A DNA stretch of 64,000 nt from an uncultured Candidatus Saccharibacteria bacterium (GCA_964615565.1 CAZTPC010000003.1:68-64067), one strand, 5' to 3'; shown: positions 16,418-55,533, counted from the first letter of the stretch. Translations and numbers: made by a program. The notes: generated from the letters alone by a model not told the origin.

Positions 16418-17067
16418 TCTTCGGAAAGCTTACTGTTTTGCTCGCGCCACTTGGCGATCTCGGCATGATTACCACTAAGCAACACATCTGGCACTTTCAT
16501 CCCACGAAATTCTTCTGGTCGGGTGTACTGAGGAAACTCTAGAGTTTTACCATCACTGAAGCTTTCGATCTCTGTACTCTTCTCCCCACCGAGTACACCA
16601 GGGATAAGACGGATAACACTGTCGATGACTGTCATAGCAGGTAGTTCACCGCCGGTTAATACATAGTCGCCAACTGATACCTGACGGTCAACCACCGTAG
16701 TAATTCGTTCGTCGTAACCTTCGTAGCGGCCACAAATGATAATAAGCCCTTTGCCATCATCGGCAAGCTGCTGTGCTTTGGCTTGCACCCAGCGCTCGCC
16801 TCGAGCGGTCATCAGCAATACTAATGCGTCGGGGTCACTCTGCTTTGCAGATTCAACTGCAGCAAAGAGCGGTTCAGGTTTGAGCAGCATACCATCGCCA
16901 CCACCATATGGGGTATCGTCTACGGTCTGGCGAGGGCCAAGGCCAAAGTCGCGAAGATTAATATAACTGATCTCAAGATGATTCTTGTCTTGAGCTTTCC
17001 ACATCATGCTTGCATTCATAACGCCAGAGAACATCTCCGGGAAAAGCGTGATAACTTGTATTTTCAT
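16414..17067 (-). CDS. trmD: tRNA (guanine37-N1)-methyltransferase
   Basis: MKIQVITLFPEMF, PYGGGDGML, ICGRYEGYDERI, GDYVLTGGELPAM and LLSGNHAEIAKWR are classical TrmD blocks. Confidence 0.92.
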   Translation of the reverse strand: MKIQVITLFPEMFSGVMNASMMWKAQDKNHLEISYINLRDFGLGPRQTVDDTPYGGGDGMLLKPEPLFAAVESAKQSDPDALVLLMTARGERWVQAKAQQLADDGKGLIIICGRYEGYDERITTVVDRQVSVGDYVLTGGELPAMTVIDSVIRLIPGVLGGEKSTEIESFSDGKTLEFPQYTRPEEFRGMKVPDVLLSGNHAEIAKWREQNSKLSED

Positions 17068-17108
17068 AGGTTAATTATAGCGTACTTCTTGCAATTGTTG
17101 TAAAAATG

Positions 17109-17882
17109 TTACCGGATATCTATTGCTTCAGGCTTAAATTTTCGACCCCAATACCATAATAGAATACCTCTATATCCCATAGCGCGAGCCTTTCGAACAG
17201 AACCATACACTAAAGCCTTCTTATTCAGCCTAGCCTGGTGGCCGGGAATTAGTTGGCAAACTTTTAGATGTAGCTCTAGATCTTCGTCTGTATCATCGAT
17301 ACTTGACCGTGGGAAGCCACCTACCTGGAGGTATAGCTGTGATTCGATAGCCATATTTAGACCAGGTATCATAAATAGCGGATACTGCTGACCGGGGCGC
17401 CGAAAGAAGATTCGAGGCGAAAATTCTACTAAGCGGATGAGCATCTTGCCGAGTACTTGATCATACCACTTTGAAATCGCTTCATCAGTTCTTGGCTGCA
17501 ATCTACCCCCAACAATTCGGGCTCCAGTTCGAAAATCTTCCTTTAGTAGCTTTACCCAATCCTTACATGGTAAGGCATCTGCATCGGTGCGTGCGACTAC
17601 CGTTGCACCATTTTTGATTGCGTATCGAAAGCCAGTATCAGAAGCAGCACCAGTCCCCTTTTGCTTCTCGTGGATCAACCGGATACGCAGATTGGGATGT
17701 TTCTTAATGTAATCTTTTACAATCTTGGGCGATCGATCGGTACTGACATTATCGACACAAACCAGAGTAAAGTCGGTGTCACTCTGTGCTTTTAGGGCAT
17801 CAAGAGTACCCGTGATCAACTTCTCTTCATTATAAAAAGGGACGACAATCCAGAAGTTACTTTTTGTTTGTTTTTTGGCCAT
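17109..17882 (-). CDS. Family 2 glycosyltransferase
   Basis: WIVVPFYNEE, VCVDNVSTDRS and a DAD motif are present. The start is likely the ATG of MAKKQTK. Confidence 0.8.
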   Translation of the reverse strand: MAKKQTKSNFWIVVPFYNEEKLITGTLDALKAQSDTDFTLVCVDNVSTDRSPKIVKDYIKKHPNLRIRLIHEKQKGTGAASDTGFRYAIKNGATVVARTDADALPCKDWVKLLKEDFRTGARIVGGRLQPRTDEAISKWYDQVLGKMLIRLVEFSPRIFFRRPGQQYPLFMIPGLNMAIESQLYLQVGGFPRSSIDDTDEDLELHLKVCQLIPGHQARLNKKALVYGSVRKARAMGYRGILLWYWGRKFKPEAIDIR

Positions 17883-18432
17883 CGTTTTTGATTTTTTCAT
17901 AGAAGTACTTAAACATCAATATTGTGACCACCAGCACACATAGGCCACTGATCAGGTGCACTACGCTTTCTACGCCTTGCGTACTTACACTGTCGCTGAG
18001 TAAATATCCAGCTGTAAACAAGGTTACCCCTTTAAGTATCGAGGTTGCGATGCTCATTGTTAGAAAGGTCGGCAACCTCATCTCAGAAACCCCTGCGAGC
18101 ACAATGGCCGGCATAGCCAGGACATCTGACATCTTGGCAAAGAACAACGTCACCTTTCCATGCTTATCGTAATACCCCTTAACCACGGCTAGACGATGAT
18201 GATTAATGCCAACATATTTGGCGTATTTGCTCTCGAGCACGGCACTACTAGATCTGCCGATCAAGTAATAGGTAATATCACTAACAATATCTGCGATCAT
18301 CAAGACAGTTAACGCCACCGAAAAGTTCAAGCCTGTTGCAGGTAACGATAAGCCGGCACCGAGGGTGATTATGGATCCTTCCAGAAAATTCAGGACAAAA
18401 AGCATTAGATATCGGGATAGCGTGCCGCTCAT
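17857..18432 (-). CDS. DedA/VTT-domain family membrane protein
   Basis: The NFLEGSIITLGAG, YYLIGRSS, YDKHGKVTLFFAKMSD and LAGVSEMRLPTFL layout matches the DedA family. Confidence 0.55.
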   Translation of the reverse strand: MSGTLSRYLMLFVLNFLEGSIITLGAGLSLPATGLNFSVALTVLMIADIVSDITYYLIGRSSSAVLESKYAKYVGINHHRLAVVKGYYDKHGKVTLFFAKMSDVLAMPAIVLAGVSEMRLPTFLTMSIATSILKGVTLFTAGYLLSDSVSTQGVESVVHLISGLCVLVVTILMFKYFYEKIKNDGQKTNKK

Positions 18433-18509
18433 TACACTTATGATATATCAAACCATGAGTTTTGATGTTATACCTAATTCCGGTGTACTATCATTGCAAG
18501 AGGTAATCG

Positions 18510-19364
18510 ATTATCAAGAACCTACGTATCGGCTCAAACACAGTTGCATATATAGAAGCCGGCTCTGGTAAGCCAATGCTATTTTTACACAACGGCGGAA
18601 GCGGTCATTGGGTTTGGCAGCACCAGGTACAACACTTTGCCAAGGACTACCATGTTTTCGCTTTTGACATGCTGGGCTGTGGAGCATCGGATCGCCCAAA
18701 TACAACCTATGATCTCGATTTTTATGCTCAGATGACAAATGACATCATGAAAAAACTCAATCTTCAGAACGTTATCTTAGTCGGTAACTGCGTAGGTGCT
18801 GCAGCATCGCTTGAGTACGCATCGCTAGATTCGTCTCGCGTTAAAGCGCTGATTCTATTTAATCTCTGTGGCGGCCACGATATGATGTCGCCACTGGTTC
18901 GCTGGGTGAGCACTCCAATGCCAAAGCCCTTGCAACATGTTCAGAAAAAGGCGCTCAAAGTATTTCGACGCATACCTGGTATGGTTGCGTCTGCTGTTCG
19001 TACGAATTTTGCAGGCAAGCCCAACCCTAAGGATCCTGTATTTATAGCTGAAACGATAGAGGCCAACAACCCAAAACAGTCCGATTCGCGACTTAACCTA
19101 ATGAACGGATTATCGTCATTCAATAAGTTTAGTAGTAAGTTTGTTAGGCCTGAATCACTACCTCCTGTGTTAGTGTTTTGGGGTCAAGAGAACCGCGTCC
19201 TGCCTGTTTCTAAAGGGCTACGATTTTGTGAACGCCTTCAGCCCACAAAAACGCATACTATTAATGGCGCCGGCCATTTACTTATGGCAGAACAACCATC
19301 TTTAGTGAACGCTTATATCGAGACGTTCCTAAACGATTTAGTGATACAGCCAATTAATTCTTGA
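18510..19364 (+). CDS. Alpha/beta hydrolase (start codon uncertain, possibly non-AUG)
   Basis: LFLHNGGSGHWVW, the nucleophile elbow VGNCVGA and a C-terminal GAGHLLMAEQP are present. The conserved N-terminal strand (IGSNTVAYIEAGSGKP) lies upstream of the first ATG at 18576, in the same open frame. Confidence 0.7.
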   Translation: MIKNLRIGSNTVAYIEAGSGKPMLFLHNGGSGHWVWQHQVQHFAKDYHVFAFDMLGCGASDRPNTTYDLDFYAQMTNDIMKKLNLQNVILVGNCVGAAASLEYASLDSSRVKALILFNLCGGHDMMSPLVRWVSTPMPKPLQHVQKKALKVFRRIPGMVASAVRTNFAGKPNPKDPVFIAETIEANNPKQSDSRLNLMNGLSSFNKFSSKFVRPESLPPVLVFWGQENRVLPVSKGLRFCERLQPTKTHTINGAGHLLMAEQPSLVNAYIETFLNDLVIQPINS

Positions 19365-21000
19365 TTAGATGTCGCTTAACCTTAAGGGTTGAGGTCCTGA
19401 CAAAGTCATCATCTCTGATGTCCACTACTTGTATCTGTTCGTAGTCGGCCAGCTGCTGATTGACATGCTCCACATGGTCATTGGCTTGTCTGCTTAGTTT
19501 GACCCTCCGTACCTTACTGTTTGTATCTGCCAGTACAATGCTAGCGCAGACCTGAGGTCCACGCTTGGATGCAATGGTATGTACTACGACATCTCGAATT
19601 GATGAATGGCTGACTAGCAGTGCCTCGACCTCTTCTGGATATATCTTCTTACCATTGCTTGCCACGATCATATTTTTAAGACGACCAACAATCTTAAGAC
19701 TGCCGTTTGGCTTGATGTATCCGAGATCGCCAGTGGCAAAACTTCCGTTGTTTAGTACTCGCCTAGTAGCTGCCGCATCCTTATAGTACCCAAGCATTAC
19801 CTGGGGACCTTTAATAATCACCTCTCCCACGCCGTCTTCGCCCTTCTGGGCAATAGTAATGGTAGTTCCGGCAATAGGTGGACCTACCGAGTCAATGTCG
19901 TTATTGCCAAAATATGTGAGGGCAACAGCTGGCGAGCACTCGGTTAGACCATACCCCTGGAACAAACCAAATCCTAACCCGAGCATTTCGTTGGCGATTT
20001 TCTCGTTGAGTGGAGCCGCGCCGCTAAGGAATATTCTAACCCTGCCACCAAGTTCGTCGTGAATTGCTGCAAATAATCGCCTCCTTAGGGTGATGCTATG
20101 CTTGCCTAGTACACTCGTGGCAGTGACTAATAGCCGAACAGTGCGCTCTTTATTTTTAGCCCTGATACCTTTCCAAATCTTGGCGTGCAATGAATCAATA
20201 ACCCTGGGCACACAGACGACAACTGTAGGCCTGACCGACTTGAACTCATCAGCAACATAACGGATACCCCGACTAAAGTGAATTGTACTACCAGAGTAAA
20301 GCGGTGCGAGGAATCCAGCATTACATTCAAACATATGATGCATGGGTAGAATCGAAAGAAATACGTCTTGGGAATTGATACCGAATGGCCGAACACCTCG
20401 CTGCATATCTAACATGATCGATCGTTGTGACAACATCACAATCTTAGATCTCGATGTAGTCCCAGATGTAAACAGCAGCGCAGCACACTGGTTTGGATTA
20501 ATCTTGATCGTACGAGGTTTCTTGCTGCCTTGTCTAATAATATTAGAGCCGTCCGTAAGGTATGCTGCAAGAGTAGTGGCACCAGAACGACTACTCATAG
20601 ATATACATGTTGTTTTGCTACTTTTTCGTTTAGCTGATGTCACTTTGGTTTTAACATCGCTAGAGTAGAACAAGATATCTAAATTGACCCTCTCGATGGA
20701 ATCAGCTAGTTCTTTGGGGGTGAGTTCTTTGTCTAGCGGCACAACAGTTCCACCTCCGCACATAACCGCAAAGTACACAACCGCCCACTGATAGGAGTTC
20801 TTACCCATGATGCCGACTTTATGAACGATTCTTGAGCGTCCCATTAATCGTGCAGTAAGCGCAGCGACATCGCTTGCAAACTGAGCATAGGTAATCTCTG
20901 CGATGTCACCGTTGTTATCTGGTTGCCGGAATGCAACCCTGTCGCCGTACAGTTTTGCGCTACGACGTAATAGCGAAGGGATTGTTGTTAGTTCGGCCAT
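19354..21000 (-). CDS. Long-chain acyl-CoA (or acyl-ACP) synthetase, ANL superfamily
   Basis: LLFTSGTTSRSK (A3), GYGLTEC (A5) and FATGDLGY...GRLKNMIV..NGKKIYPEEVE (A7-A8) are present. Confidence 0.85.
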   Translation of the reverse strand: MAELTTIPSLLRRSAKLYGDRVAFRQPDNNGDIAEITYAQFASDVAALTARLMGRSRIVHKVGIMGKNSYQWAVVYFAVMCGGGTVVPLDKELTPKELADSIERVNLDILFYSSDVKTKVTSAKRKSSKTTCISMSSRSGATTLAAYLTDGSNIIRQGSKKPRTIKINPNQCAALLFTSGTTSRSKIVMLSQRSIMLDMQRGVRPFGINSQDVFLSILPMHHMFECNAGFLAPLYSGSTIHFSRGIRYVADEFKSVRPTVVVCVPRVIDSLHAKIWKGIRAKNKERTVRLLVTATSVLGKHSITLRRRLFAAIHDELGGRVRIFLSGAAPLNEKIANEMLGLGFGLFQGYGLTECSPAVALTYFGNNDIDSVGPPIAGTTITIAQKGEDGVGEVIIKGPQVMLGYYKDAAATRRVLNNGSFATGDLGYIKPNGSLKIVGRLKNMIVASNGKKIYPEEVEALLVSHSSIRDVVVHTIASKRGPQVCASIVLADTNSKVRRVKLSRQANDHVEHVNQQLADYEQIQVVDIRDDDFVRTSTLKVKRHLIKN

Positions 21001-22220
21001 TTCTTGAACACCAGACATGCATTATGCCCACCAAAACCAAACGAATTACTCATGACCAAATCTAACTCTTTCTTAATACCAGTATTTGTTACAACGTTAA
21101 CCAAACACATCGGGTCGACATTTGTAACATTGATAGTTGCTGGTACAAAACCATTCTGGAGAGACAGCACTGAAGCGATTGCCTCAACTGCACCGCCTGC
21201 ACCAAGCAAATGACCGGTCATTGATTTTGTTGAAGAGACTAACACCGGCGAATCACTGCCAAATACCCGTGTAATTGCCTTCGACTCGGTTGCATCGTTA
21301 AGGACAGTTGCTGTTCCGTGTGCGTTAATATACCCAACCTTATCAGCACTAACCCCAGCATCGTCCAGAGCTAATTGCATAGCTTGTCCGATTGTCACTC
21401 CTTCTTGCTCGGGAGTAGTAATACTGTAAGCGTCGCAGTTAGTCCCGTAGCCAACTACCTCGGCCAGGATCTGTGCACCCCTTGCTGTGGCATGCACTAG
21501 ATCCTCGAGAATCACAATGCCCGCACCCTCACCCATAACCGTTCCACTTCGTTCAGTATCGAACGGTATACATGCACGCTCTGGGCCGTCACCTGTGTAC
21601 ATAGCACGCATTGCCGCAAACCCTGAGAGCGTCAAGGGAGTAATTGCTGCCTCGGCAGCACCAGCAATAATGACATCTTGATCGCCACGCTGTATTGCCT
21701 TGAAGGCCTCACCTATCGAGTTTGACCCGCTGGCACATGCGGTGACGATAGCCAGGTTTGGACCCTTTGCTTGGAAGTCGATGGCAATAGCTCCTGAAGC
21801 CAGGTTAACTAGCGTGTTTGGGATTAAATACGGCGAAACACGGGACGGCGCATTCCGATCAAAAGAGTCGTAACTTTCTTCTAGTGCCTCAATCCCGCCA
21901 ATACTCGTGGAAACATATACACCAAACCTACTTGGAACTACATCGTCTTTCTGCAAACCACTGTTCTTGTATGCTTGTTTAGCAGCGATACGAGCAAACT
22001 GCATAAACCTAGAATTGTACCTGGCATCGTGTTTACCCAGGAATTCTACTGGGTCGAGATCACGCACTTCGGCAGCAATCTTTACTGGACAATTTGTAGT
22101 ATCGAATGATGTGACATGACTAATACCGCTCTTGCCGGCTTTGAGTCCTTCCCAATAACTTTGCACATCATTACCAATTGGCGTAATGGCACCCATGCCA
22201 GTAATAACAACCCTACGCAT
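20988..22220 (-). CDS. fabF: Beta-ketoacyl-ACP synthase II-type elongating ketosynthase
   Basis: The start is MRRVVITGMGAITPIG. The Cys-His-His triad is visible as ACASGSNSIG, NAHGTAT and GHLLGAGG. It ends SFGFGGHNACLVF. Confidence 0.9.
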   Translation of the reverse strand: MRRVVITGMGAITPIGNDVQSYWEGLKAGKSGISHVTSFDTTNCPVKIAAEVRDLDPVEFLGKHDARYNSRFMQFARIAAKQAYKNSGLQKDDVVPSRFGVYVSTSIGGIEALEESYDSFDRNAPSRVSPYLIPNTLVNLASGAIAIDFQAKGPNLAIVTACASGSNSIGEAFKAIQRGDQDVIIAGAAEAAITPLTLSGFAAMRAMYTGDGPERACIPFDTERSGTVMGEGAGIVILEDLVHATARGAQILAEVVGYGTNCDAYSITTPEQEGVTIGQAMQLALDDAGVSADKVGYINAHGTATVLNDATESKAITRVFGSDSPVLVSSTKSMTGHLLGAGGAVEAIASVLSLQNGFVPATINVTNVDPMCLVNVVTNTGIKKELDLVMSNSFGFGGHNACLVFKKWPN

Positions 22221-23184
22221 TAGCTGCCTCAATCTTTTGTAGCATTGTGGCGATATCATCGTATTTCTCAACTACATGCGTCTCAGCCCGTAAACCTAAT
22301 GCCTTGGCATTCTCTCGGGCATAAGCTGCAAGCGAGACTCCAGGTCCAATTGCGATAAAACGCGTTATTCCATCTCTGCACATATTTTCGATTGTCTTCT
22401 GTAACTGAACTGGACGATAGAACTGCGCAACCTCAATATCACCAATGCCTGTATGCCCGGTCTCGCCATCGACGTTATAGTATACCGGCAATTCTGGCGC
22501 TTTAAATACAAAGTTTTGCTTCTCGATCTCTGAAGCAAATAACTCGGCAGCAGGCCTAGCCAAGCTAGAGTGGAAGGCCCTGGAGGTCCCAAGTTTGACT
22601 GCCTGCACCCTTTTTCTCGCCGCACATTGCTCTATAACAGAATTTACTGCCTTGTTGTCTCCAGTGACTACAAGGCGTGTATCAGTAGAATATGTGGCTA
22701 TCTGGCAGGCACCATACTGCTGGGCTTCACTGCAAATACTCTCTAAGGCTTCGGCATCCAGCCCAATGATAGATGCCATGCCCGAACCATCTGGAATAGC
22801 CTCAGCCATAATCCTACCTCGACTGGCCATAAGTGTGACACCAGATTGCACATCGAATGATCCTGCATAGCAAAGCGCTGCATACTCACCCAGGCTTAGA
22901 CCAGCAACGGCATCGGCATGGATCCCGGCGCCCTCTAACGCCAGCGATACGGCCATGGAAGCCAAAAATAAGCTAGCTTGAACGTAACGCGTATCCGTTA
23001 GCTGCTCGCTACCTTCAAGACATAAAGTCCTGAGCGACATGCCATCATCAAACCGGAAATCAATCGAGTCCACAAGCTCTCGCACAGATTGATCGTTATC
23101 ATAAAATGTCCGGAATGCTTCCGGGTCCAATGGCAAGCCCTGCCCAGGGAAAAGGATGGCAGTTTTTGCTTCACTCGCGCTCAT
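22213..23184 (-). CDS. fabD: Malonyl-CoA:ACP transacylase
   Basis: The N-terminal ILFPGQG, the active-site GLSLGEYAAL and the SRAFHS motif are present. Confidence 0.85.
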   Translation of the reverse strand: MSASEAKTAILFPGQGLPLDPEAFRTFYDNDQSVRELVDSIDFRFDDGMSLRTLCLEGSEQLTDTRYVQASLFLASMAVSLALEGAGIHADAVAGLSLGEYAALCYAGSFDVQSGVTLMASRGRIMAEAIPDGSGMASIIGLDAEALESICSEAQQYGACQIATYSTDTRLVVTGDNKAVNSVIEQCAARKRVQAVKLGTSRAFHSSLARPAAELFASEIEKQNFVFKAPELPVYYNVDGETGHTGIGDIEVAQFYRPVQLQKTIENMCRDGITRFIAIGPGVSLAAYARENAKALGLRAETHVVEKYDDIATMLQKIEAANA

Positions 23185-23185
23185 G

Positions 23186-23425
23186 TTACTTGGAAGATAC
23201 TGCTTTTTTGGATTCGAGGAGACTTACAATGTCACCAACGGTTTTTAAGTCGGCAAGCTCTTCGTCAGATATTTTGACATCGAACTTTCCTTCTATTTCG
23301 AATGACAAATTAACCGCTGCCATACTGTCAATATGAAGATCATTGCGTAGATTCGCCTCGGGAGTCACTTCTTCTTTATCTACATCAAACTCTTCGCTAA
23401 TGATATCTTGAATTTCATCAAGCAT
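23186..23425 (-). CDS. Acyl carrier protein (dedicated)
   Basis: 79 aa and acidic, with a DSMAAV phosphopantetheine-attachment serine motif. Confidence 0.85.
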   Translation of the reverse strand: MLDEIQDIISEEFDVDKEEVTPEANLRNDLHIDSMAAVNLSFEIEGKFDVKISDEELADLKTVGDIVSLLESKKAVSSK

Positions 23426-23429
23426 GCTC

Positions 23430-24368
23430 TTACACCTCCATCACAAGAATATTTGCTGTTAATCCTGCTGCCGTCCCACACAGTAGCACTCTGTTTCCTG
23501 AAGTAATTATACCATTCTCAAGAAGTTTGCAGAGTACAAACGGAACAGAAACCGAAACCATGTTGCCATATTCTTTTACCCAGTTAATATAGCTGCCTTC
23601 AGGCGCGCCCATTTTGCTCATTATCATGTTGAGAACTCGACTAGCCTGATGAGGGATGATAACGTCCACATCCTTCATTCCTATACCAAACTCATTAGAA
23701 AAGTCTTTGACCATAGCCGGTAACCGCTGTGCTGCGATACGCAAAACTGCTCGACCATTCATATCGAACATATAGTCTTCTTTATTCTCTTCTGTGTAGA
23801 ACTGTGGTCTCAGCCCAGTTAGCCCACCTCGTATTTCTGTAGTATGCACACCTTCAGACCAGGTACGCTGCATACTTGCTATAACTCCTTGATTTTCATT
23901 ATCTGAAGAAGAAAGCACTATTGCAGCCGCCCCATCCGAAAAGAGTTCGTAGCTTTCTTTTTGCTTTGGGTTAAGGCCAAGTGATCCTACCTCACTTGAT
24001 ACGATTAGTACCTTCTTGTAACGGCCAGCATCTATCAGGTAGGAGGTCAGATCGACTGCAGTCAAAAAACTGGTACAAGTAGTATTAATGTCTAGAGCCG
24101 GTATCTCGGTGCCCTTTGCAATTTGCTCGTGAATCAAAGCTGCAGTGCATGGTAAGGGCTGAATCCCTACAGCACTAGCCGAAACAATACAATCGATATC
24201 AGTGATATCTAGACCGGCAACCTGCAAAGCATCCTTACAAGCAGCAACTGCCATAGAAAGCTGTGTTTCGTCGCCTGTCACCCGGTAGCGTGTGCCACCG
24301 TCGAATTGCACTGGATGAGAAGGAAGATACGTTCCCCAGCCTGTAATCTTACAGTTACGAACTTTCAC
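23430..24368 (-). CDS. KASIII (FabH-family) ketosynthase
   Basis: The Cys (NTTCTSFLTA), His (IPHQAS) and Asn (YGNMVSVSVP) triad is present. The 312-aa size fits the family. Confidence 0.85.
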   Translation of the reverse strand: MKVRNCKITGWGTYLPSHPVQFDGGTRYRVTGDETQLSMAVAACKDALQVAGLDITDIDCIVSASAVGIQPLPCTAALIHEQIAKGTEIPALDINTTCTSFLTAVDLTSYLIDAGRYKKVLIVSSEVGSLGLNPKQKESYELFSDGAAAIVLSSSDNENQGVIASMQRTWSEGVHTTEIRGGLTGLRPQFYTEENKEDYMFDMNGRAVLRIAAQRLPAMVKDFSNEFGIGMKDVDVIIPHQASRVLNMIMSKMGAPEGSYINWVKEYGNMVSVSVPFVLCKLLENGIITSGNRVLLCGTAAGLTANILVMEV

Positions 24369-25656
24369 TAAACTGCCTTTCTATACGTTTTAACTTACGT
24401 TTCATATCTAATGAATATGTTTCAAATGTAATGCGTGGCGATACAAATGACATCTTCTTGGCGAGATTCGCAAACTCGGCTGCGATAGCTTGTCGTACTG
24501 TCGCAGCTTGGGTATCAATCTGAACTACGATCGTATCGTGCGATGTTTGAGTCACCCTGTACTCTCCTATACCTTTAGTATATATCACACATCGGGCAAT
24601 AATATCTGGGAAGACCTTAATAGTCCGTCCGGCTTTATCCTTAAATAAGAAGATGTCATCTTCGCGGCCTTCGATTCGATCAATTACTGTGGTAGTCATA
24701 CCACAGGAACACTTCTTCTTGGACAGAACAAGGATATCGTTGAGCCTGTACCGAACAATAGGCTGTGTCTTCCGCCGAAAGTCTGTGATAATCGGTACGA
24801 ACCGACGGTCGTCGATAAACTCTTTCTCAATATAGACAATATCTTCATTCAAGTGCAGCGATCCCTCATGACAGGTGTGTGCCAGGAATCCTTCAGTACA
24901 CTGGTATGCCTGGTAGATGTACTTCTGACGAAAAACTCTCTTGAATCGTTTCTCGTCGCCAACCGATAATACCTCTGCTACCGATATAACCTTCTGAGCA
25001 TGCAAGGATATAACTTTCTGTTCTACTGCATTTGCAATCAGCCCCAGAACAGACGGCGGAGCAATAAGTACTGTTGGTTCGTATTGCTCGAGTTCGCTAA
25101 TGAGCTTTGTCATATCCTTATACATATCAAAATACCTAAAGGTGATGAACCGTGAATTAACAGATTCGTACAAGTTGTTGTTTGCCCGCAGGAAGAAGGC
25201 TACTCTATGACCGCTTATACTACCCTTTGGTAGAAACTTTGCCAGTACGGCTCCCGCCCAGGAAGCTCGCTCGTAATCACTCGCTACAAACAATCCTCGG
25301 TGGCCACTGGTACCTGACGAAAGTCCAACTGAAACGCCATTATAGGTAGGTGTAAAGTTACGAGTTCGTTCACTTTTAATTGCAATCGCCAGTGCCTTAT
25401 CGCGTTTTAGGCCGCGAGTATTCATAGTATTAAAGCTAGCCAGCGAAGCAGCCTTATCCATTATTGGTAAGTCCTGAAGGTCACCAATACCCCGAATAAG
25501 CTGACGTTTTGCAAAGTACGGTGAATGTGTATGCAAATATGCAAAGTGTCTGCGGATCATTCTAGATTGCAACCGCTCTACGGATTTTCTAGTTCGCAAC
25601 TTCTGTAGCCAACGTGTCTGGACAAAGTACCAAAGAGTTATTAGTTTTTCTTTCAC
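24355..25656 (-). CDS. PaaK / coenzyme-F390-synthetase-related adenylate-forming enzyme
   Basis: 433 aa. It carries an SSGTSGHRG P-loop, YQCTEG and VRYRLNDIL, plus a C-terminal subdomain as in phenylacetate-CoA ligase-like enzymes. Confidence 0.7.
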   Translation of the reverse strand: MKEKLITLWYFVQTRWLQKLRTRKSVERLQSRMIRRHFAYLHTHSPYFAKRQLIRGIGDLQDLPIMDKAASLASFNTMNTRGLKRDKALAIAIKSERTRNFTPTYNGVSVGLSSGTSGHRGLFVASDYERASWAGAVLAKFLPKGSISGHRVAFFLRANNNLYESVNSRFITFRYFDMYKDMTKLISELEQYEPTVLIAPPSVLGLIANAVEQKVISLHAQKVISVAEVLSVGDEKRFKRVFRQKYIYQAYQCTEGFLAHTCHEGSLHLNEDIVYIEKEFIDDRRFVPIITDFRRKTQPIVRYRLNDILVLSKKKCSCGMTTTVIDRIEGREDDIFLFKDKAGRTIKVFPDIIARCVIYTKGIGEYRVTQTSHDTIVVQIDTQAATVRQAIAAEFANLAKKMSFVSPRITFETYSLDMKRKLKRIERQFSESS

Positions 25657-26456
25657 AACAGCTGCCTTTTCCTGTAAGTGTCGTGACTAAAGCAAACAGC
25701 AACCCCTTTGGTTTGTAGCTTCTGTAGTGCAACTACAGTTTGTTTGTAATGGCTGTAATCGTGTTGTACTTGCTTAGCCACAAAGCGAAGATTATGTGAG
25801 TGCTCTAGTAAATCTTGGCCCCAGCTTGCATCTCCCGCCAACAGCATCTTGCCAGGGATGTAGGCGCCTAGATGGCCTTTGGTGTGACCTGGCAGGCCTA
25901 CTACAAATAGACTCTTGTCTCCAAAGAGGTCGAAACCGCGTAATCCATCGGTTCGCACTTTCATATCGGTATCTTTTATGACCATAAACTGCTGCTCAAC
26001 GTTTTTAGGCAGTAATCCCTTTAATAGTAGATCTTTAGTTCGAGGTTTTTGAAAGGTATCGTATGTATCCTTACCTATAATTACCTTAGCTTTCGGAAAG
26101 AACTTGACCCCGCCAATATGGTCTGGATGCATGTGTGACAAGATCACATACCGTATATCGGCAAGCTTGATGCCATCTTTCCGAAGCTGTGAGGCAATTT
26201 CGTCGCTCCTCTGCACGAACGTCGGGTTGAACCTACAGTAGACCTTACCAATTATGCCCTGCCTGTAGATATCAGTTGAGTATCCGGTATCAAATAATAC
26301 GTAACCAAACCTTGGGTGCAGAATCAAAAAGACACCGGATGGGAATGTTCTTCTTTCCTTGGGATGGTCTCGGTAGACATGAGACAGCTGGTTTACGCAG
26401 TGACCACATCGATAATACGTTACGGTCAGCGGGTTAGAGTTTGTTTGCTGCGACAT
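25653..26456 (-). CDS. MBL-fold metallo-hydrolase
   Basis: LSHMHPDHIGG (HxHxDH) is present, with downstream GHTKGH and a D/H ligand. Confidence 0.8.
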   Translation of the reverse strand: MSQQTNSNPLTVTYYRCGHCVNQLSHVYRDHPKERRTFPSGVFLILHPRFGYVLFDTGYSTDIYRQGIIGKVYCRFNPTFVQRSDEIASQLRKDGIKLADIRYVILSHMHPDHIGGVKFFPKAKVIIGKDTYDTFQKPRTKDLLLKGLLPKNVEQQFMVIKDTDMKVRTDGLRGFDLFGDKSLFVVGLPGHTKGHLGAYIPGKMLLAGDASWGQDLLEHSHNLRFVAKQVQHDYSHYKQTVVALQKLQTKGVAVCFSHDTYRKRQLL

Positions 26457-27405
26457 ATTGGTGTATCCCCGTATCTAAACTCACTTTTGGTACATAACCT
26501 AAATCGCGCTTAGCCCTGGAAATGTCTAGTGTCTGAGAGTACCCAAGCGTGCAAACAGTGTAGCGTGTGATAGGTGGTTCTTTCGTAATCCTAAGAAGCC
26601 GGTAAATCAATTCGATGATAACAGCTACTCTATACACTACATGTACATTGCGATGGCGAAAACGAGGAGTTATACCAAGACCTTCGAACAGCTGCTTGAC
26701 TATCGCTTTAAACGGGCGCGGTTCGCCATTGGTAATGTTGTAGGTCTTGCCCACTGCCCTTGGCGACTCTGCCGCAAGCCTGCAGGCCAACGCAACATTC
26801 TCGACACAAGTAAGATCTACTTTGTTGGTACCGTCACGAAAGAGCGGGATACCAAAAGATGCATTGGCAGCCAACAGGCGTGGCACAATACTGGTATCAC
26901 CGACGCCAATGATACCTCTTGGGCGCAGGATAACAACTTCAATGTCTCTGGCGCAGCCCATGACTACTTGCTCGGCAGCAATCTTGCTACGTATATAGTT
27001 ATTAAGGTTATTCCTTCTATCAACTTCTGGCTCTTTGATCTTGAGTCTGTCCCCGGTTCTAGAGTAAACACTTGGTGACGACACAAAGACTAACCGTTTA
27101 ACGCCAATCGCGCGACAGAAGTCGACGACATGTTGTGTTCCTTGGACATTATCGGCGTAGAAATCTTTCCAGGAGCCCCAGACAGTTGATCGTGCGGCTG
27201 CGTGCACAACAATATCAATCTTGTCAGATACTTTACCCAAATTGGCGAGATCTCCGGCAAACGTCAGTATACCGGCTTTACGAAACTTCGAGAGCTTCTG
27301 TTTATTCCGACCTGCAGCGATAACACGGTAACCTTTTTTCGAAAACTCTTGGACAATATATTCACCCAAGAACCCGGTTGCGCCTGTTACGAGGACAGTC
27401 TTCAT
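26434..27405 (-). CDS. Extended SDR (NAD-dependent epimerase/dehydratase family; thioester-reductase-like)
   Basis: The N-terminal VLVTGATGFLGEY and the catalytic YIRSK (YxxxK) are present. 323 aa. Confidence 0.8.
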   Translation of the reverse strand: MKTVLVTGATGFLGEYIVQEFSKKGYRVIAAGRNKQKLSKFRKAGILTFAGDLANLGKVSDKIDIVVHAAARSTVWGSWKDFYADNVQGTQHVVDFCRAIGVKRLVFVSSPSVYSRTGDRLKIKEPEVDRRNNLNNYIRSKIAAEQVVMGCARDIEVVILRPRGIIGVGDTSIVPRLLAANASFGIPLFRDGTNKVDLTCVENVALACRLAAESPRAVGKTYNITNGEPRPFKAIVKQLFEGLGITPRFRHRNVHVVYRVAVIIELIYRLLRITKEPPITRYTVCTLGYSQTLDISRAKRDLGYVPKVSLDTGIHQYVAANKL

Positions 27406-28001
27406 ACTTGCCCTACAGCAATCTTGGCGTTCTGGTCGCTACAGAATACAGCCAGAGTATAATCGTTATCCTGAATTACTACATTATTAGTCTCTTCCAG
27501 TAGATCAGAGGTAGAGTACCGAGAAAACCCAAGGCCGAGCCCTTCGCCGACTAACTTTGAGTAGGCCTCTTTAATCACCCAGGCTCGGAGTGGATCCGCT
27601 CCTAATCGCATCTCTTGTGTAGTTAGTATCCTACTATGCAACTTTGCAGGGATCACTCTGGTTTGCTCAACATCCAGGCCTACATTTGAACTCGAGACTA
27701 CACAGGCAATGTAATTGCCTGTATGTGCATATGAAAAGAAGTAACCATTTGTACGGTGATACGGTTTCCCTTTTGAAGTGACAAGAATATCGCTTGGGCT
27801 ATACTTCTTATCTGTAAATGTCCAAAGCATCTGTGCCAATAGTGCATAGGCTAATTTTGTCTCCAGACGAACAGTACCATCGTAATGTCTTGGCACGGCA
27901 ACTTTAGGCAGCTCTGCAAGTTCTGTAAGAGTAAGCACACATACATTTGTAAAAACACTTACTTCGGTAGTTGCAGGACTCATTAGGCCATATGGTAACA
28001 C
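27402..28001 (-). CDS. Sfp-type 4'-phosphopantetheinyl transferase
   Basis: GKPY, FSYAHTGNYIACVV, VGLDVE and WVIKEAYSKLVGEG motifs are present. The start is a GTG. Confidence 0.75.
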   Translation of the reverse strand: MLPYGLMSPATTEVSVFTNVCVLTLTELAELPKVAVPRHYDGTVRLETKLAYALLAQMLWTFTDKKYSPSDILVTSKGKPYHRTNGYFFSYAHTGNYIACVVSSSNVGLDVEQTRVIPAKLHSRILTTQEMRLGADPLRAWVIKEAYSKLVGEGLGLGFSRYSTSDLLEETNNVVIQDNDYTLAVFCSDQNAKIAVGQV

Positions 28002-28021
28002 AGTTCTATTAGCGGCTCTTG

Positions 28022-28027
28022 TATAAT
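28022..28027 (+). promoter_or_regulatory. -10 element TATAAT, 6 nt upstream of the ATG at 28034 (leaderless-type)
   Basis: TATAAT-ACGGCC-ATG. It lies only 21 nt from the divergent PPTase start codon. Confidence 0.4.
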
Positions 28028-28033
28028 ACGGCC

Positions 28034-29266
28034 ATGCACATTGCCATGTTCACGGATTACTACCTGCCGACACTCGGGGGCGTCCAAACGTCTATCAAAG
28101 CACAAAAAGAAGCACTGGAACTCGCTGGTCATACTGTTACCGTATTTTGCCCATTAACTAAACCAAGCACAGACCCAACTATCGTCAGACTTCCAACCTC
28201 TAGAAAGTTTAGTCCTGGTGGATACCCCTTTGTGTGGCCACCGCAAAAGGCAATTAAAACTGCTCGTGACGAGCTCATAAAACTGGGTGATATAGATATT
28301 GTCCACACCCATAGCGAGATGGGCGCAACAATCGCCGGCTTAGTTGCCGGTAAGGAGCTGGGAATACCTCTGGTTCAGACAATGCACGGCCGAATCGATG
28401 TATATACCAAACACCTACCAGCTCCGGTGCTGATGTCGCATATCTTAGAGAAACTACACAGTAAACACATACAACACCTTTCGATCGTCAAAAATGATAG
28501 TTCACACTACACCAAAACAGCTTTGGCACGACGTATGTGGAAGATCATGGTTAATCAGGCAAATTTTACCAATCATGTTATCGTCCCTTCCAAACATTTT
28601 GCCGACAAGTTACTAAAACAAGGTGTTACAACGCCTTTGTCCGTGCTCTCTAATGGCTTAGAGGATTCTGTTTTGCAGCAGCTAGTGCGCAGTAAACCAA
28701 GGAAACTAGCCAAGAATCAGAAGCTAAAGATACTTTGGTGCGGCCGCGTATCCCCAGAGAAGCGACCGATCGAGTTCTTGAAAGCCGTTCGGTTCCTAAA
28801 AAACGTAGAAGTTAGTATGTACGGCGACGGTGTGGACATGGCAAAGGTGAAGCGGTATATCGTACGCTACCACCTCGAGGATCGAGTAACCGTCTACGGT
28901 GGTGTGCCTCAAAAAGATATCTTGCGGGCAATGGCTAGTTGTCATCTATTCATTTCTACATCATACGACTTCGATAACCAACCCATGGTATTACTCGAGG
29001 CTATGGCTGCTGGCCTACCGGCAATGTTTTGTGACCCTGACATGACCGAGGTAGTCCCAGCTAAAGGATCGACCTTAACAAATTCCCCAGATGCGCAAGG
29101 TATTGCCGAGTCTATCGAAAAGTTACAGGATTCGCCTGAGCAGATCAGCCATATGAGTAAGGCTATGCTTAGTAGCAAGAAACAGGCCGCCCAACAAAGC
29201 TATACCACGCAGCTACTTCGGATCTACGCTACAGCTATCAAGCAATCTGCTTCGCCTCAGAAATAA
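28034..29266 (+). CDS. GT4 glycosyltransferase resembling diacylglycerol glycosyltransferases (MGS-type glycolipid synthases)
   Basis: The N-terminus MHIAMFTDYYLPTLGGVQTSIKAQKEALELAGHTVTVFCP follows the FxxxYxPxxxGVxTS pattern of alpha-monoglucosyl-DAG synthases. The C-terminal E(x7)E region is LLEAMAAGLP. Confidence 0.7.
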   Translation: MHIAMFTDYYLPTLGGVQTSIKAQKEALELAGHTVTVFCPLTKPSTDPTIVRLPTSRKFSPGGYPFVWPPQKAIKTARDELIKLGDIDIVHTHSEMGATIAGLVAGKELGIPLVQTMHGRIDVYTKHLPAPVLMSHILEKLHSKHIQHLSIVKNDSSHYTKTALARRMWKIMVNQANFTNHVIVPSKHFADKLLKQGVTTPLSVLSNGLEDSVLQQLVRSKPRKLAKNQKLKILWCGRVSPEKRPIEFLKAVRFLKNVEVSMYGDGVDMAKVKRYIVRYHLEDRVTVYGGVPQKDILRAMASCHLFISTSYDFDNQPMVLLEAMAAGLPAMFCDPDMTEVVPAKGSTLTNSPDAQGIAESIEKLQDSPEQISHMSKAMLSSKKQAAQQSYTTQLLRIYATAIKQSASPQK

Positions 29267-30029
29267 TATAGTCTGCCAGGAACTTGTATTGTTTGAGAGG
29301 TAAGTGATGCCCGCCGGCAAGATTAATAACCTTCATCTTGTCAGCTCGTAGTGACGTTAGCTCACTACCTGAGTAGTATTTATCGTCTTTGGAATAAATG
29401 ACGCTAACAGGCATAGGCAATGAATGCAGGTCGCTCAACGGCTGATAACCGATGATTGTGTTACGCAGGCTTCGCAGAAATGATGCTCTAGTATGGGTAA
29501 AGTACTCATCAGCAATGTCAGCCATATTTGGCTTGGAACCATGTAGAAATCGAGGTACTTTCTTGCCGATCCGAGTACCTAGGCCAGCATGAACTGCTCG
29601 CCCAAGTGGACTAACATATGCCTTATGGAAGATCGACTGCGTGCCAAGTATCATTTTTTGGGCTTGTTTTTTATCGGTGAATGTAGGCATATTCACTAGC
29701 ACAAGCCGAGAGACGAGTTCCGGGTGTGTCTTGGCAATCCTAGTTGCGATCATTGCGCCCATAGAATGCCCAACGAGAACTACAGGTCCTTCAAGATCGG
29801 CAAGCACATTGTGTACGATACTCTCGGCATGTTGGTCTACATCGTATAGCCCATCTTTGGGCTTTTGTGACAACCCGAAACCAAGTATGTCGGGAGTGAT
29901 CACCTGTAGTGTCTTGGTAGGGAGCCGCTTAACAACGAGATCCCAATACTTATGGGACGTTTCAAAACCATGAAGGAAGACCACTGGTGTACCAGTTCCT
30001 TTCTGAACCGTATGAAGCATATAGTCCAT
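29238..30029 (-). CDS. Alpha/beta hydrolase
   Basis: VVFLHGF and the nucleophile elbow GHSMGA are present, with a C-terminal GGHHLP. The start is taken at the ATG of MDYMLHTV, immediately downstream of the terminator. Confidence 0.75.
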   Translation of the reverse strand: MDYMLHTVQKGTGTPVVFLHGFETSHKYWDLVVKRLPTKTLQVITPDILGFGLSQKPKDGLYDVDQHAESIVHNVLADLEGPVVLVGHSMGAMIATRIAKTHPELVSRLVLVNMPTFTDKKQAQKMILGTQSIFHKAYVSPLGRAVHAGLGTRIGKKVPRFLHGSKPNMADIADEYFTHTRASFLRSLRNTIIGYQPLSDLHSLPMPVSVIYSKDDKYYSGSELTSLRADKMKVINLAGGHHLPLKQYKFLADYIISEAKQIA

Positions 30030-30035
30030 TGTAAC

Positions 30036-30060
30036 AAAAAGAACCCCGATTAAGGGGTTC
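30036..30060 (-). terminator. Rho-independent terminator ending the rpsP-KH transcription unit
   Basis: The minus strand reads GAACCCC-TTAATC-GGGGTTC-TTTTT, a perfect 7-bp stem with a T-run. Confidence 0.7.
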
Positions 30061-30178
30061 CGTCTGTCACATAAAGCTCCCAATGATTCTGAGTTACAGG
30101 TCACTGGCTCGCAAGAGCTTGTTTTCTATTTCAATAAAAAACCTTTTTGTCTTTGTAAGACTAGGTAGAAGTTTACGC

Positions 30179-30673
30179 TTAGATGTCTAAGTCGTCAAGG
30201 TCTTCAAGTTCGCGGCGAGTTTTCTTAGCCATATCACTTGGCTCGTCGCTGACGTCATCCAACTCAGGTTCGCCCGCTTCAATGACTTCGTCATTAGCAG
30301 CCGCAACGGTTGTGGTGTCGTCTTGCGCGGTGTCGTCTGCTGAATCATCGGATGAAGTATTGTCGCTTGAATCATTTGCTTGGGCTGACTCTGGCTTACG
30401 AGCAGGTCGCTCGTAGTCTTCTGGGCCGTTGTCTACGATCTTAAGGTTATAACGAGCATCGTTCTTGGTTCCTAGTGCACGAAGCAGTGTGCGAAGGCTC
30501 TGTGCGGTTGCACCGCGCTTACCAATGATGCGACCGAGGTCTTCTGGGTCAACGGTGAGCTCTAGGAGCACGCCTTTCTCGTCGATTCGACGCTCGATAA
30601 CAACTTGATCTGGATTCCCAACGAGGGATTTTACGATATATTCAACAAAGTCTTGGTCAATATTACTGCTCAT
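30179..30673 (-). CDS. KH-domain RNA-binding protein (KhpA/YlqC-like) with a long acidic C-terminal tail
   Basis: A CAGGAG Shine-Dalgarno lies 8 nt upstream of MSSNIDQ. The KH core is VIERRIDEKGVLLELTVDPEDLGRIIGKRGATAQSLRTLL. The tail is about 85 aa and rich in D, E and S. Confidence 0.8.
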   Translation of the reverse strand: MSSNIDQDFVEYIVKSLVGNPDQVVIERRIDEKGVLLELTVDPEDLGRIIGKRGATAQSLRTLLRALGTKNDARYNLKIVDNGPEDYERPARKPESAQANDSSDNTSSDDSADDTAQDDTTTVAAANDEVIEAGEPELDDVSDEPSDMAKKTRRELEDLDDLDI

Positions 30674-30775
30674 GGCTGAACTCCTGTTTACTCTGACCTT
30701 TTCAGTATAGCAAACTGCCAAACAAAAAGTCCGGGATTGTCCCGGACTTTGAAAGATTCTTGCGATTTAAAAAGC

Positions 30776-31240
30776 TTAGGCTTCTTCTTTTTTCTCTTCT
30801 TCTACAGCTTCTTCAGCTGGAGCTTCGGTTACTTCTTCAGTAGTTTCTACTGTAGCTTCAGCTGCAGGTGCTTCTTCAGCAACGTCTGCCGGAGCTTCTT
30901 CTGCGACTTCTTCAGCCTTTTCTTCAGCTGGCTGGTTCTTGCGAAGCTTTTCAGCATTACGGATTGTGCGAGCACGATCGGTAGAAAGCGCTACCCATTC
31001 TGGGAGCTTAACACCTTCTTTTTGTAGTAGACGGGCAACACGGTCTGATGGTTGTGCTCCGTTACTTAGGTAAAAGCTAGCTTTTTCGGTGTCCACAGAT
31101 ACAGCCTTGGTATGTGGGTCGTAGTGACCGAGGTTGGCAACTACTTTACCACTGGTTGGGGTTAGGCGTGAGTCTTGAACAACAACGCGGAACATTGCAT
31201 GTCCCTTACGTCCGGTTCGTTGCATTCGAATAGCTAGCAT
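30776..31240 (-). CDS. rpsP: 30S ribosomal protein S16 with an acidic Glu/Ala-rich C-terminal extension
   Basis: MLAIRMQRTGRKGHAMFRVVVQDSR is the classical S16 N-terminus. The last 55 aa or so are EEAPA/EEV repeats. Confidence 0.9.
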   Translation of the reverse strand: MLAIRMQRTGRKGHAMFRVVVQDSRLTPTSGKVVANLGHYDPHTKAVSVDTEKASFYLSNGAQPSDRVARLLQKEGVKLPEWVALSTDRARTIRNAEKLRKNQPAEEKAEEVAEEAPADVAEEAPAAEATVETTEEVTEAPAEEAVEEEKKEEA

Positions 31241-31319
31241 AGGTTTACGATCTTCTCTTTCTTGTATCCATTTAGATTTCTAAAATGACTTTGCTCTATT
31301 TTACAGATAACGACCTCTA

Positions 31320-31349
31320 TTGTCAACTCTTGCCAATCCAGGCTACAAT
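31320..31349 (+). promoter_or_regulatory. Sigma70-like promoter TTGTCA-N18-TACAAT, 7 nt upstream of the ATG at 31357 (leaderless-type)
   Basis: Read directly from the sequence. There is no Shine-Dalgarno before the ATG of MKGDKTT. Confidence 0.45.
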
Positions 31350-31356
31350 ACCTGAA

Positions 31357-36117: not shown

Positions 36118-36618
36118 ATGCCAAGTAAGTCCGAGCTCGAGAGTTTAGGCACACCGCTGGAGAGTCCGAGAATGCCTACGCTTGTTAAGATTGGTCAGTG
36201 GTATGCGTACAGACATAACAGGACTATGCCCGCCAAAGCCACACCAGAAGATTACCGCAACTGGCATTGGCAAGGCGTGCGCGCAATCGCTAAATATTCG
36301 GCGATCATTGCATTATCCTTAACAACTGTCGTACTACCTTTACGCTGCGCAATGAATAGGGCCAAAGAGGAGTGCAAAGATTACACAATGCTCGACTTCG
36401 GAGAAACATCAGAGCAGGCATTTAGCCACACTGAGGACATACTAGTAACCCCCAAAGGCTACAAGATAAACGAGCTCTACAATGTCTTCGACGAAGGCGG
36501 AACGATACATACTTGCGTGTACGACACTATACAGAAGTTAGACAGCGTTGCAGCCGACTTCCGTACCGCAAGCGGCGATTACGACACTACTGCAGCAACA
36601 ACTACACTACCAAGTTGA
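36118..36618 (+). CDS. Hypothetical protein with one TM segment
   Basis: 166-aa ORF. Its 3' end overlaps the leuS 3' end by 17 nt, and the two genes converge. Confidence 0.45.
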   Translation: MPSKSELESLGTPLESPRMPTLVKIGQWYAYRHNRTMPAKATPEDYRNWHWQGVRAIAKYSAIIALSLTTVVLPLRCAMNRAKEECKDYTMLDFGETSEQAFSHTEDILVTPKGYKINELYNVFDEGGTIHTCVYDTIQKLDSVAADFRTASGDYDTTAATTTLPS

Positions 36619-55526: not shown

Positions 55527-55533
55527 GCGCATC

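Follow-up and report, generated by a model that had tools for sequence, protein, structure and literature searches.

A biosynthetic gene block, probably acquired, between the KH gene and trmD of an uncultured Candidatus Saccharibacteria bacterium

In many bacteria rpsP, a KH-domain gene (ylqC/khpA), rimM, trmD and rplS form one conserved operon. The stretch of DNA analysed here (the window, 64 kb) comes from an uncultured Candidatus Saccharibacteria (TM7) bacterium, and in it the KH gene and trmD lie 13.1 kb apart. The segment between them (17068-30178) is occupied by a block of 12.9 kb (about 17100-30032), which holds a nine-gene operon for acyl chemistry together with glycosyltransferase, hydrolase and membrane protein genes, and which is the subject of this work. 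The named homologs of the TrmD protein of the window all belong to Candidatus Saccharibacteria or Saccharimonadales, and the GC content is about 0.46 across the whole window. The features of the locus, with the matches on which their naming is based, are as follows.

16414-17067, minus strand: trmD, the downstream flank of the insertion (PF01746, 180.6 bits)
17109-17900, minus strand: GT2 glycosyltransferase, the final gene of the block, with its stop 41 nt ahead of the trmD ATG (PF00535, 83 bits)
17857-18432, minus strand: DedA/VTT-family membrane protein, similar to the undecaprenyl-phosphate transporter UptA (PF09335; NCBIfam UptA 46.5 bits, under cutoff)
18576-19364, plus strand: alpha/beta-hydrolase 1, with a haloalkane-dehalogenase-like fold (PF00561, 101 bits; PDB matches)
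19354-21018, minus strand: adenylating enzyme of 554 amino acids (aa), similar to long-chain acyl-CoA/AMP ligases (PF00501, 217 bits; NCBIfam PRK06187, 240 bits, under cutoff)
20988-22271, minus strand: FabF, beta-ketoacyl-ACP synthase II, ACP being acyl carrier protein (TIGR03150, an equivalog model, 543.8 bits, over the cutoff of 493.75)
22213-23184, minus strand: FabD-like malonyl/acyl transferase (PF00698; TIGR00128, 166.8 bits, under the cutoff of 260.9)
23186-23425, minus strand: ACP, 79 aa, with a DSM motif in its translation (NCBIfam ACP 71.8 bits, cutoff 71)
23430-24368, minus strand: KASIII-type ketosynthase, nearest to MxnB/CorB (PDB 4v2p, 146 bits; 4yuc, 138 bits)
24355-25656, minus strand: TIGR02304 "F390 synthetase-related" (PaaK-like) adenylate-forming enzyme (489.6 bits, over the cutoff of 251.9; PaaK structures, 49 bits)
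25653-26456, minus strand: metallo-beta-lactamase-fold hydrolase (MBL), lactonase- or thioesterase-like (PF00753; AttM-type lactonase, 85 bits, under cutoff; structures of acyl-homoserine lactone lactonases)
26434-27405, minus strand: extended short-chain dehydrogenase/reductase (SDR), nearest to OleD, a 2-alkyl-3-oxoalkanoate reductase (NCBIfam OleD, 225 bits, cutoff 580; next family, 117 bits)
27402-28001, minus strand: 4'-phosphopantetheinyl transferase (PPTase), the first gene of the operon (PF01648)
28019-29266, plus strand: GT4 glycosyltransferase, divergent from the operon (PF13439, PF00534)
29238-30029, minus strand: alpha/beta-hydrolase 2, which opens the block and has a weak likeness to thioesterases (PF00561, weak PF00975; PDB 3qit, the CurM thioesterase, 54 bits)
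30033-30121, minus strand: conserved structured RNA motif and intrinsic terminator, the retained KH-trmD spacer (junction alignments; covariance-model match at 30065-30121, 49.5 bits)
30179-30721, minus strand: KH-domain (KhpA-like) gene, the upstream flank of the insertion (PF13083, 79 bits)
30776-31240, minus strand: rpsP, ribosomal protein S16 in a long form (PF00886, TIGR00002)
31285-33147, plus strand: MsbA-like ABC exporter (TIGR02203, 362 bits, under cutoff)
33148-33927, minus strand: open reading frame (ORF) of 259 aa, with no family match

Read from rpsP along the minus strand, the order is rpsP, KH, alpha/beta-hydrolase 2, the nine-gene operon, DedA, GT2 and trmD, with GT4 and alpha/beta-hydrolase 1 on the plus strand. 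The nine genes of the operon (19354-28001, minus strand) have overlapping stops and starts and are translationally coupled, in the order PPTase, SDR, MBL, TIGR02304, KASIII, ACP, FabD-like, FabF and acyl ligase. ORF, Pfam and NCBIfam calls found all of the genes named in an earlier note on this DNA at, or within a few codons of, the places it had assigned to them. The terminator which the same note had seen between KH and the block was also recovered, at 30061-30040 on the minus strand (a stem of 8 pairs, 5 of them GC, then a T-run). The true start of alpha/beta-hydrolase 2 is the ATG at 30029, not the GTG at 30104, and lies about 10 nt past this T-run, so that a transcript entering the island from upstream would have to read through the terminator. 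A second strong intrinsic terminator (30750-30726, minus strand, with an 11-bp stem) is located between rpsP and KH, thus co-transcription of these two genes may not be strict.

The window was compared with contigs whose TrmD proteins differ in a graded way in their identity to its own. In five relatives (TrmD identity 86% in L003, 83% in L005, 86% in L087, 81% in L088 and 80% in L089; reported range 80-87%) the order was leuS...nusB-NUDIX-rnc-rpsP-KH-trmD, with no block between KH and trmD. The gap between the two genes measured 130-330 bp in four of these and about 1 kb in L089, and the downstream neighbours seen in the window, typA and a DUF1295 gene among them, follow trmD in L003, L005, L087 and L088; L089 differs there. 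A scan of metagenomes with the invariant core of the KH-trmD spacer as the query returned 80 loci (L093-L172), about 58 of which have KH upstream and/or trmD downstream of the motif, with TrmD identities down to 51%. In every such locus with enough sequence (about 20 contigs) the motif lies less than 2 kb from trmD, mostly at 50-130 nt. Occupied sites were found only in the window and in its nearest sister lineage (TrmD identity 91%; contigs L001, L002 and L090-L092, from four further samples), where the block sits at the same junction.

Because of these empty sites in the relatives and in the metagenome loci, the ancestral state of the lineage is rpsP-KH-spacer-trmD, without rimM or rplS. Domain scans found neither rimM nor rplS (L19) anywhere in the 64-kb window, as the earlier note had said, and neither gene was found beside trmD in the five relatives. 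The expectation of a canonical operon was thus borne out in part: rpsP, KH and trmD are on one strand, in the canonical order, and contiguous in the relatives, but rimM and rplS are not in the unit of this lineage. The contiguity of rpsP-KH-trmD in the relatives favours the insertion of an island between KH and trmD that had been proposed from the window, a proposal which is also supported by the phylogeny, the codon usage and the copies at other loci described below.

The spacer of the empty sites is kept in the window right after KH, and the block begins directly past the T-run of the terminator. The junction reads TTTTTGTTACAATGGAC in the window and TTTTTGTTACAATGAAG in the sister; it is identical in both, the common sequence being ...TTTTTGTTACAATG..., and there was thus a single insertion event. 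At the other border trmD has kept its own -10 box (TATAAT, 17079-17074), with TAAAAT or TACAAT at the matching position in the empty sites. The insertion is intergenic, between the terminator on the KH side and the promoter of trmD itself, and the island has the same orientation as its flanks. The earlier note had spoken of an insertion into the rpsP-trmD operon. This needs to be corrected, since the terminator was already present between KH and trmD before the insertion and the block therefore split no single transcript.

The spacer itself encodes a conserved structured RNA, which occurs in the window, in L003, L005, L087, L088 and L091, and in about 55 of the metagenome loci. In its outer helix AGCUC pairs with GAGCU, and the internal loop on the 5' side, (N)UGCGAG, is invariant. 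The inner hairpin, with a length of 3 to more than 20 bp, is freely variable in sequence and often capped by GAAA. The 3' part, GGGAG-CUUU-AUG-UGA, is Shine-Dalgarno-like with adjacent start and stop codons, and is followed by the intrinsic terminator. Over 57 distinct instances the inner hairpin had a mean minimum free energy of -4.8 kcal/mol, compared to -1.2 for shuffles (p = 7.5e-11), and a covariance model of the motif detected 62 instances in the sequence examined. In the alignment fitted by the model 98.6% of the cells were standard pairs, and compensatory changes were seen at two pairs, in 32 and 23 sequences. The covariation score was 0.201 against 0.066 for shuffles (0 of 500 reached 0.201) and at most 0.058 for slid controls, only the inner helix being informative because the 3' half is fixed by the search pattern. 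When the 4227 covariance models of Rfam were used, the spacer gave only two chance-level matches (E >5) at E values up to 10, and at gathering thresholds the window gave no known family. It may be speculated that the motif acts as an attenuator for trmD. One metagenome locus (L163) carries two copies of the motif, at 1238-1283 and 2406-2447, about 1.1 kb apart and upstream of trmD.

The distribution of the operon outside of this lineage was followed by a scan of GTDB species genomes, in which an alignment for TIGR02304 served as the query, and by mapping the gene order with tblastn. At least 568 of the GTDB species genomes contain a relative of the TIGR02304 protein, many oral streptococci, Microbacterium and Lachnospiraceae being among them, and the order reductase-MBL-TIGR02304-KASIII, referred to here as the core, was kept in all 80 of the 80 loci from the scan. 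The carriers of this order include oral streptococci, Microbacterium, Jonesia, Stomatobaculum, other Firmicutes, four contigs of metagenome-assembled genomes (MAGs) labelled "Corynebacterium", and seven Saccharibacteria loci. Neighbour-joining trees, which are distance-based and were midpoint-rooted, were built from the concatenated four-gene core (1294 columns, 200 bootstraps). In these the window and its sister grouped together in 100% of the replicates, and in 98% with two other Saccharibacteria loci (L007 and L008) added. This clade and L014 were placed with Actinobacteria and split from all Firmicutes with 100% support, and a second Saccharibacteria pair (L022 and L026) joined the Firmicutes, also with a bootstrap of 100%. 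Saccharibacteria were monophyletic in 0 of 200 replicates. A tree of the reductase gene by itself is unreliable because the L001 sequence is missing from it. As judged from the core trees, the phylogeny of the core is in conflict with that of the organisms, as would be expected from the acquisition which the earlier note had suspected.

The surroundings of the core vary between its carriers, and none of the other Saccharibacteria copies is located near rpsP, KH or trmD. In L008 the cluster lies between smpB-NUDIX and a large serine recombinase (16306-21190 region), which is followed by DUF4352, terminase and DNA methylase genes; this may be a prophage or an integrative element that carries, or adjoins, the cluster, and no homolog of the recombinase was found beside the other cluster copies. 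The GT2 gene accompanies the cluster in L007 and L008 (70-76% identity). Of 70 loci, 53 have a glycosyltransferase immediately upstream of the core; it is a GT4 in the Actinobacteria and the Saccharibacteria, and GT28/EryCIII-like in the streptococci. The named homologs of the window's GT4 are all from Actinobacteria (for example Jonesia, at 56% identity, Microbacterium, Tessaracoccus and Arthrobacter). In Streptococcus oralis J22 (L056, 6915-13884) the core stands between the GT28/EryCIII-like glycosyltransferase and cardiolipin synthase, the gene for which (cls) follows the core in 25 of the 43 streptococcal loci, and in Microbacterium phyllosphaerae (L035, 6962-12216) a GT4 and the four-gene core stand between the topoisomerase IV genes parE and parC. 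Actinobacteria and streptococci, which have their own type II fatty acid synthesis (FAS II), carry only the core and the glycosyltransferase. In the Saccharibacteria copies these are joined by PPTase, ACP, FabD, FabF and an acyl ligase, and in part the same holds for some of the low-GC Firmicutes copies. No description of the cluster was found in the literature searched.

Between the window and its sister the rate of synonymous change (dS) is saturated in flank and block genes alike, and the insertion therefore predates a deep species split. The nonsynonymous rate (dN) is 0.05-0.28 in the block and 0.02-0.08 in the flanks, and all of the ORFs are intact in both lineages. With the synonymous sites saturated only the bound that dN is far below dS can be used, and by this measure the block is under purifying selection, of a more relaxed kind than in the flanks. 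Codon usage sets the block apart, as the correlation of relative synonymous codon usage between the block and the rest is 0.695, compared to 200 random 14-gene subsets that averaged 0.923 and never fell below 0.830. GC content at third codon positions (GC3) is 0.436 in the block and 0.448 in the rest, which is not significant, and for overall GC the values are 0.452 and 0.471, respectively (p = 0.012). In tetranucleotides the correlation of the block, 0.846, falls at the low edge of the range for segments of the same size elsewhere in the window (0.841-0.905). The compositional contrast looked for between block and flanks was therefore present in codon usage, but GC3 is host-like and the tetranucleotide signal marginal. 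The combination of ameliorated GC and GC3, distinct codon usage and saturated dS fits the view that any acquisition would be old.

The locus has grown in steps, since GT4, the MsbA-like exporter and the ORF next to it are found only in the window lineage. GT4 is missing from the sister (L090-L092), in which the block is otherwise collinear and the distance from the hydrolase to the PPTase is 36-54 bp, and it is also absent from all five relatives with empty sites. In the window it stands divergent next to the reductase operon, which is the arrangement seen in Actinobacteria. The exporter and the 259-aa ORF, located between rnc and rpsP, are absent from the sister (rnc-rpsP gap of 84 bp) and from the five empty-site relatives. 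In L087 an insertion sequence with an rve integrase occupies the same position, so that rnc-rpsP is a second variable spot. The restriction of GT4 and the exporter to the window lineage is due to gain there or loss in the sister. Elsewhere in the window, the leucyl-tRNA synthetase (36602-39490, 962 aa) has a NUDIX domain inserted at residues 383-500, just past the editing domain. The window, its sister (L090, L091) and L003 have this insertion; L005, L088 and L089, in which the enzyme has about 805-824 aa, do not.

The best matches of the operon's ketosynthase in the PDB were MxnB (4v2p, E = 1.4e-41) and CorB (4yuc, E = 4.9e-39), with FabH at no more than 111 bits and OleA (3row, 3s21) at about 47 bits. 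The alignment to MxnB/CorB covers about 276 residues; the Cys-His-Asn triad is intact, and TTCTSF, PHQASR and YGNMVS align with the catalytic residues. FabF scored over its equivalog cutoff and the ACP at its cutoff; the FabD-like protein and the KASIII were under theirs. The acyl ligase had no match in the PDB at E values up to 1e-30. No FabG, FabZ/A, FabI/K/L or acetyl-CoA carboxylase was found in the block or in the 64-kb window. It has been reported that fatty acid and lipid synthesis is missing in bacteria of the candidate phyla radiation (CPR), Saccharibacteria included (PMC10939385, PMC7786006). Phospholipid head-group enzymes are encoded in the window (54909-56025 and 2555-3448), namely a phosphatidylserine decarboxylase, a CDP-alcohol phosphatidyltransferase and a protein with a lysyl-phosphatidylglycerol synthase transmembrane domain, which indicates that the organism has head-group enzymes although it belongs to a group without fatty acid synthesis.

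We propose that the operon is made up of two modules. The core, common to Actinobacteria and Firmicutes and in nearly every case accompanied by a glycosyltransferase, would comprise the SDR keto-reductase, the MBL hydrolase, the PaaK-like adenylating enzyme and the MxnB/CorB-like KASIII, and the PPTase, ACP, FabD-like protein, FabF and long-chain acyl ligase would form a self-sufficiency kit, needed because an organism without FAS II must supply the core with acyl- or 3-oxoacyl-ACP. In the putative pathway the ligase would activate a scavenged fatty acid, which would be loaded onto holo-ACP and extended once by FabF and FabD to a 3-oxoacyl-ACP. The KASIII may then join or extend chains, its second substrate having been activated by the TIGR02304 enzyme; reduction of the keto group would fall to the SDR, and release of the product to the MBL or an alpha/beta-hydrolase. 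Finally, GT4 or GT2 may glycosylate the product, and DedA and the MsbA-like exporter would carry it across the membrane. The product is probably a specialised, glycosylated lipid of the envelope or a secreted one, made from scavenged fatty acids, rather than a bulk membrane fatty acid. Taken as a whole, we consider it likely, and hold with good though not full confidence, that the block is an acquired biosynthetic island which integrated once in the ancestor of the window and the sister, has been inherited vertically, and makes a specialised lipid in the manner proposed.

Several observations weigh against this account. No integrase, recombinase or transposase was found across the 64-kb window, and direct or inverted repeats and target-site duplications at the block borders were matched only at chance level. 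These scans agree with the earlier note, which had likewise seen no integrase, transposase or border direct repeats; a loose TTTTTnnnACAAT likeness between the two junctions, seen by eye, was not counted as significant. No tRNA marks the borders either, the nearest one being 16 kb off. In GC and GC3 the block resembles its host, its tetranucleotide signal is only marginal, and the difference in codon usage could in part reflect expression level. With trees that are distance-based and midpoint-rooted, the transfer may have run from Actinobacteria to Saccharibacteria or the reverse, and the nearest relatives of the core outside Saccharibacteria are the MAG contigs labelled Corynebacterium, a label that depends on their binning. 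With regard to function, the predicted chemistry comes from family membership only; five of the nine operon proteins scored under their best NCBIfam cutoff, and the NCBIfam match of the PPTase is weak. No source of malonyl-CoA (acetyl-CoA carboxylase or MatB) was identified, and FabG, FabZ or FabI could be encoded elsewhere in the genome, of which only 64 kb is visible.

The host-like GC and GC3 and the borders without mobility genes or repeats would also suit a block already present in the ancestor of this group of Saccharibacteria, which every other lineage would then have lost in repeated and precise deletions. This would have to be reconciled with at least five genomes and about 20 metagenome contigs in which a short spacer and terminator are followed by trmD, with the different loci of the other Saccharibacteria copies, and with the incongruent phylogeny and distinct codon usage, and we regard it as highly improbable. 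To an assembly or binning chimera, in which a foreign contig was joined to Saccharibacteria DNA, we give practically no credence. The window does derive from a metagenome-type assembly and some of the related contigs are MAG-derived, but both block-flank junctions recur in contigs of at least four other samples in orthologous yet diverged form (Logan SRR12350684; ENA ERZ27248703, ERZ15185638 and ERZ28614589), and Saccharibacteria contigs of 698 kb and 804 kb show synteny with the flanks on either side.

If the island is an acquired one, its product could still be other than the specialised lipid proposed. A true FabF equivalog, ACP, FabD-like protein, KASIII and PPTase are all present, as in a minimal fatty acid synthase giving de novo membrane fatty acids. 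This reading was demoted to very unlikely because the genes of the reductive cycle (FabG, FabZ and FabI), along with acetyl-CoA carboxylase, are missing from block and window; furthermore, the KASIII is nearer to MxnB/CorB than to FabH, and the core is found beside a glycosyltransferase also in organisms with a full FAS II, such as Streptococcus and Microbacterium. [quoted passage not shown] For the reductase OleD was the best family (225 and 197 bits), and analogues of the four Ole roles (KASIII, SDR, adenylating enzymes and haloalkane-dehalogenase-like hydrolases) are at hand, as is a lactonase-like MBL. The OleD score, however, is far under the cutoff of 580, OleA reached about 47 bits where MxnB reached 146 for the KASIII, and no OleA, OleB or OleC model was seen among the NCBIfam matches listed (KASIII, 21 of 21; alpha/beta-hydrolase 1, 25 of 26; acyl ligase, only 25 of 99); linkage to a glycosyltransferase is not an Ole feature. 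In place of an envelope lipid, the product of the block might also be small and diffusible, for instance a signal of the dialkyl-pyrone type or an antibiotic, and serve in the interaction between epibiont and host. The KASIII is nearest to the pyrone-forming MxnB/CorB, the lactonase-like MBL is accompanied by an adjacent ABC exporter, and pyrone-forming ketosynthases have been found to make quorum signals in other bacteria (PMC4578411). The identity to MxnB is only moderate, the cluster is without polyketide synthase (PKS) assembly lines, and the genes associated with it (glycosyltransferase, DedA, cardiolipin synthase) speak for membrane lipids, and so we find such a product unlikely.

CPR bacteria, Saccharibacteria included, are portrayed as relying on their hosts because they make neither fatty acids nor membrane lipids. 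An ACP-dependent acyl cluster that is intact and selectively kept in a CPR genome suggests that some of these organisms rework scavenged lipids chemically. Since the core is related to versions from Actinobacteria, the host phylum, it offers a testable candidate molecule for the epibiont envelope or for host interaction. It is possible, and put forward only tentatively, that Saccharibacteria obtained a glycolipid or branched-lipid pathway from, or exchanged one with, their actinobacterial hosts and made it autonomous by a private toolkit, which re-tailors host fatty acids into a surface or signalling lipid, with expression by way of a hitherto undescribed RNA attenuator that normally precedes trmD. 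In that case some CPR bacteria would not be purely scavengers of lipids, and the lipid might be used at the interface of epibiont and host. As the four-gene core with its glycosyltransferase is widespread, its product would matter outside CPR biology as well. With its clean pair of empty and occupied sites, the locus also provides a case study of how reduced genomes gain large clusters without recognisable mobility genes.

Several known systems can be set beside this locus. The trmD operon is rpsP-rimM-trmD-rplS in Escherichia coli and rpsP-ylqC(KH)-rimM-trmD-rplS in Bacillus. The window lineage shares with it rpsP, the KH gene and trmD on one strand in canonical order, and differs in that a structured RNA and a terminator part KH from trmD, rimM and rplS are outside the unit, and the window adds the 12.9-kb island. 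The chain-joining ketosynthases of myxopyronin and corallopyronin synthesis, MxnB and CorB (PMC4578411), which fuse two beta-ketoacyl chains head to head into an alpha-pyrone, are the best solved homologs of the block's KASIII and share its conserved triad. Unlike theirs, the predicted partners of the block enzyme are a stand-alone ACP, FabF, FabD, PaaK-like ligase, SDR and MBL, and not type I PKS or nonribosomal peptide synthetase lines. With OleABCD the block has in common a thiolase-fold condensing enzyme, an SDR whose best match is OleD, an adenylating enzyme and an alpha/beta-hydrolase; the OleD match is under cutoff, though, the KASIII is not OleA-like, and the MBL, glycosyltransferases and ACP system are not Ole features.

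In the PqsABCDE alkyl-quinolone pathway an aryl/acyl-CoA ligase works together with condensing enzymes of the KASIII type and with PqsE, a thioesterase of the MBL fold. It provides a mechanistic analogy, PqsD and PqsC being among the PDB matches of the KASIII, but similarity is low, and the block is without an anthranilate-related gene and is set in a context of glycosyltransferase and lipid genes. The cyl (granadaene) cluster of group B Streptococcus, which is type II FAS-like, makes a glycosylated specialised lipid. Both clusters have a dissociated FabD/ACP/ketosynthase set, a glycosyltransferase and an ABC exporter; no equivalents of CylG (ketoreductase), CylZ (dehydratase), CylE, CylF or CylK were seen in the window, and the block's core of TIGR02304, MBL and OleD-like SDR is different. 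Compared to genomic islands in general, the block is without an integrase, tRNA target or direct repeats, and its GC is fully ameliorated. It resembles them in its sporadic occurrence, the empty site in relatives, the incongruent phylogeny, the distinct codon usage and the stepwise accretion. The host here is a CPR bacterium with a reduced genome, in which such clusters have rarely been reported. A horizontally acquired biosynthetic island is a known kind of element; what is unusual about this one is its CPR host, its self-contained acyl-ACP toolkit and its affinity with the host phylum.

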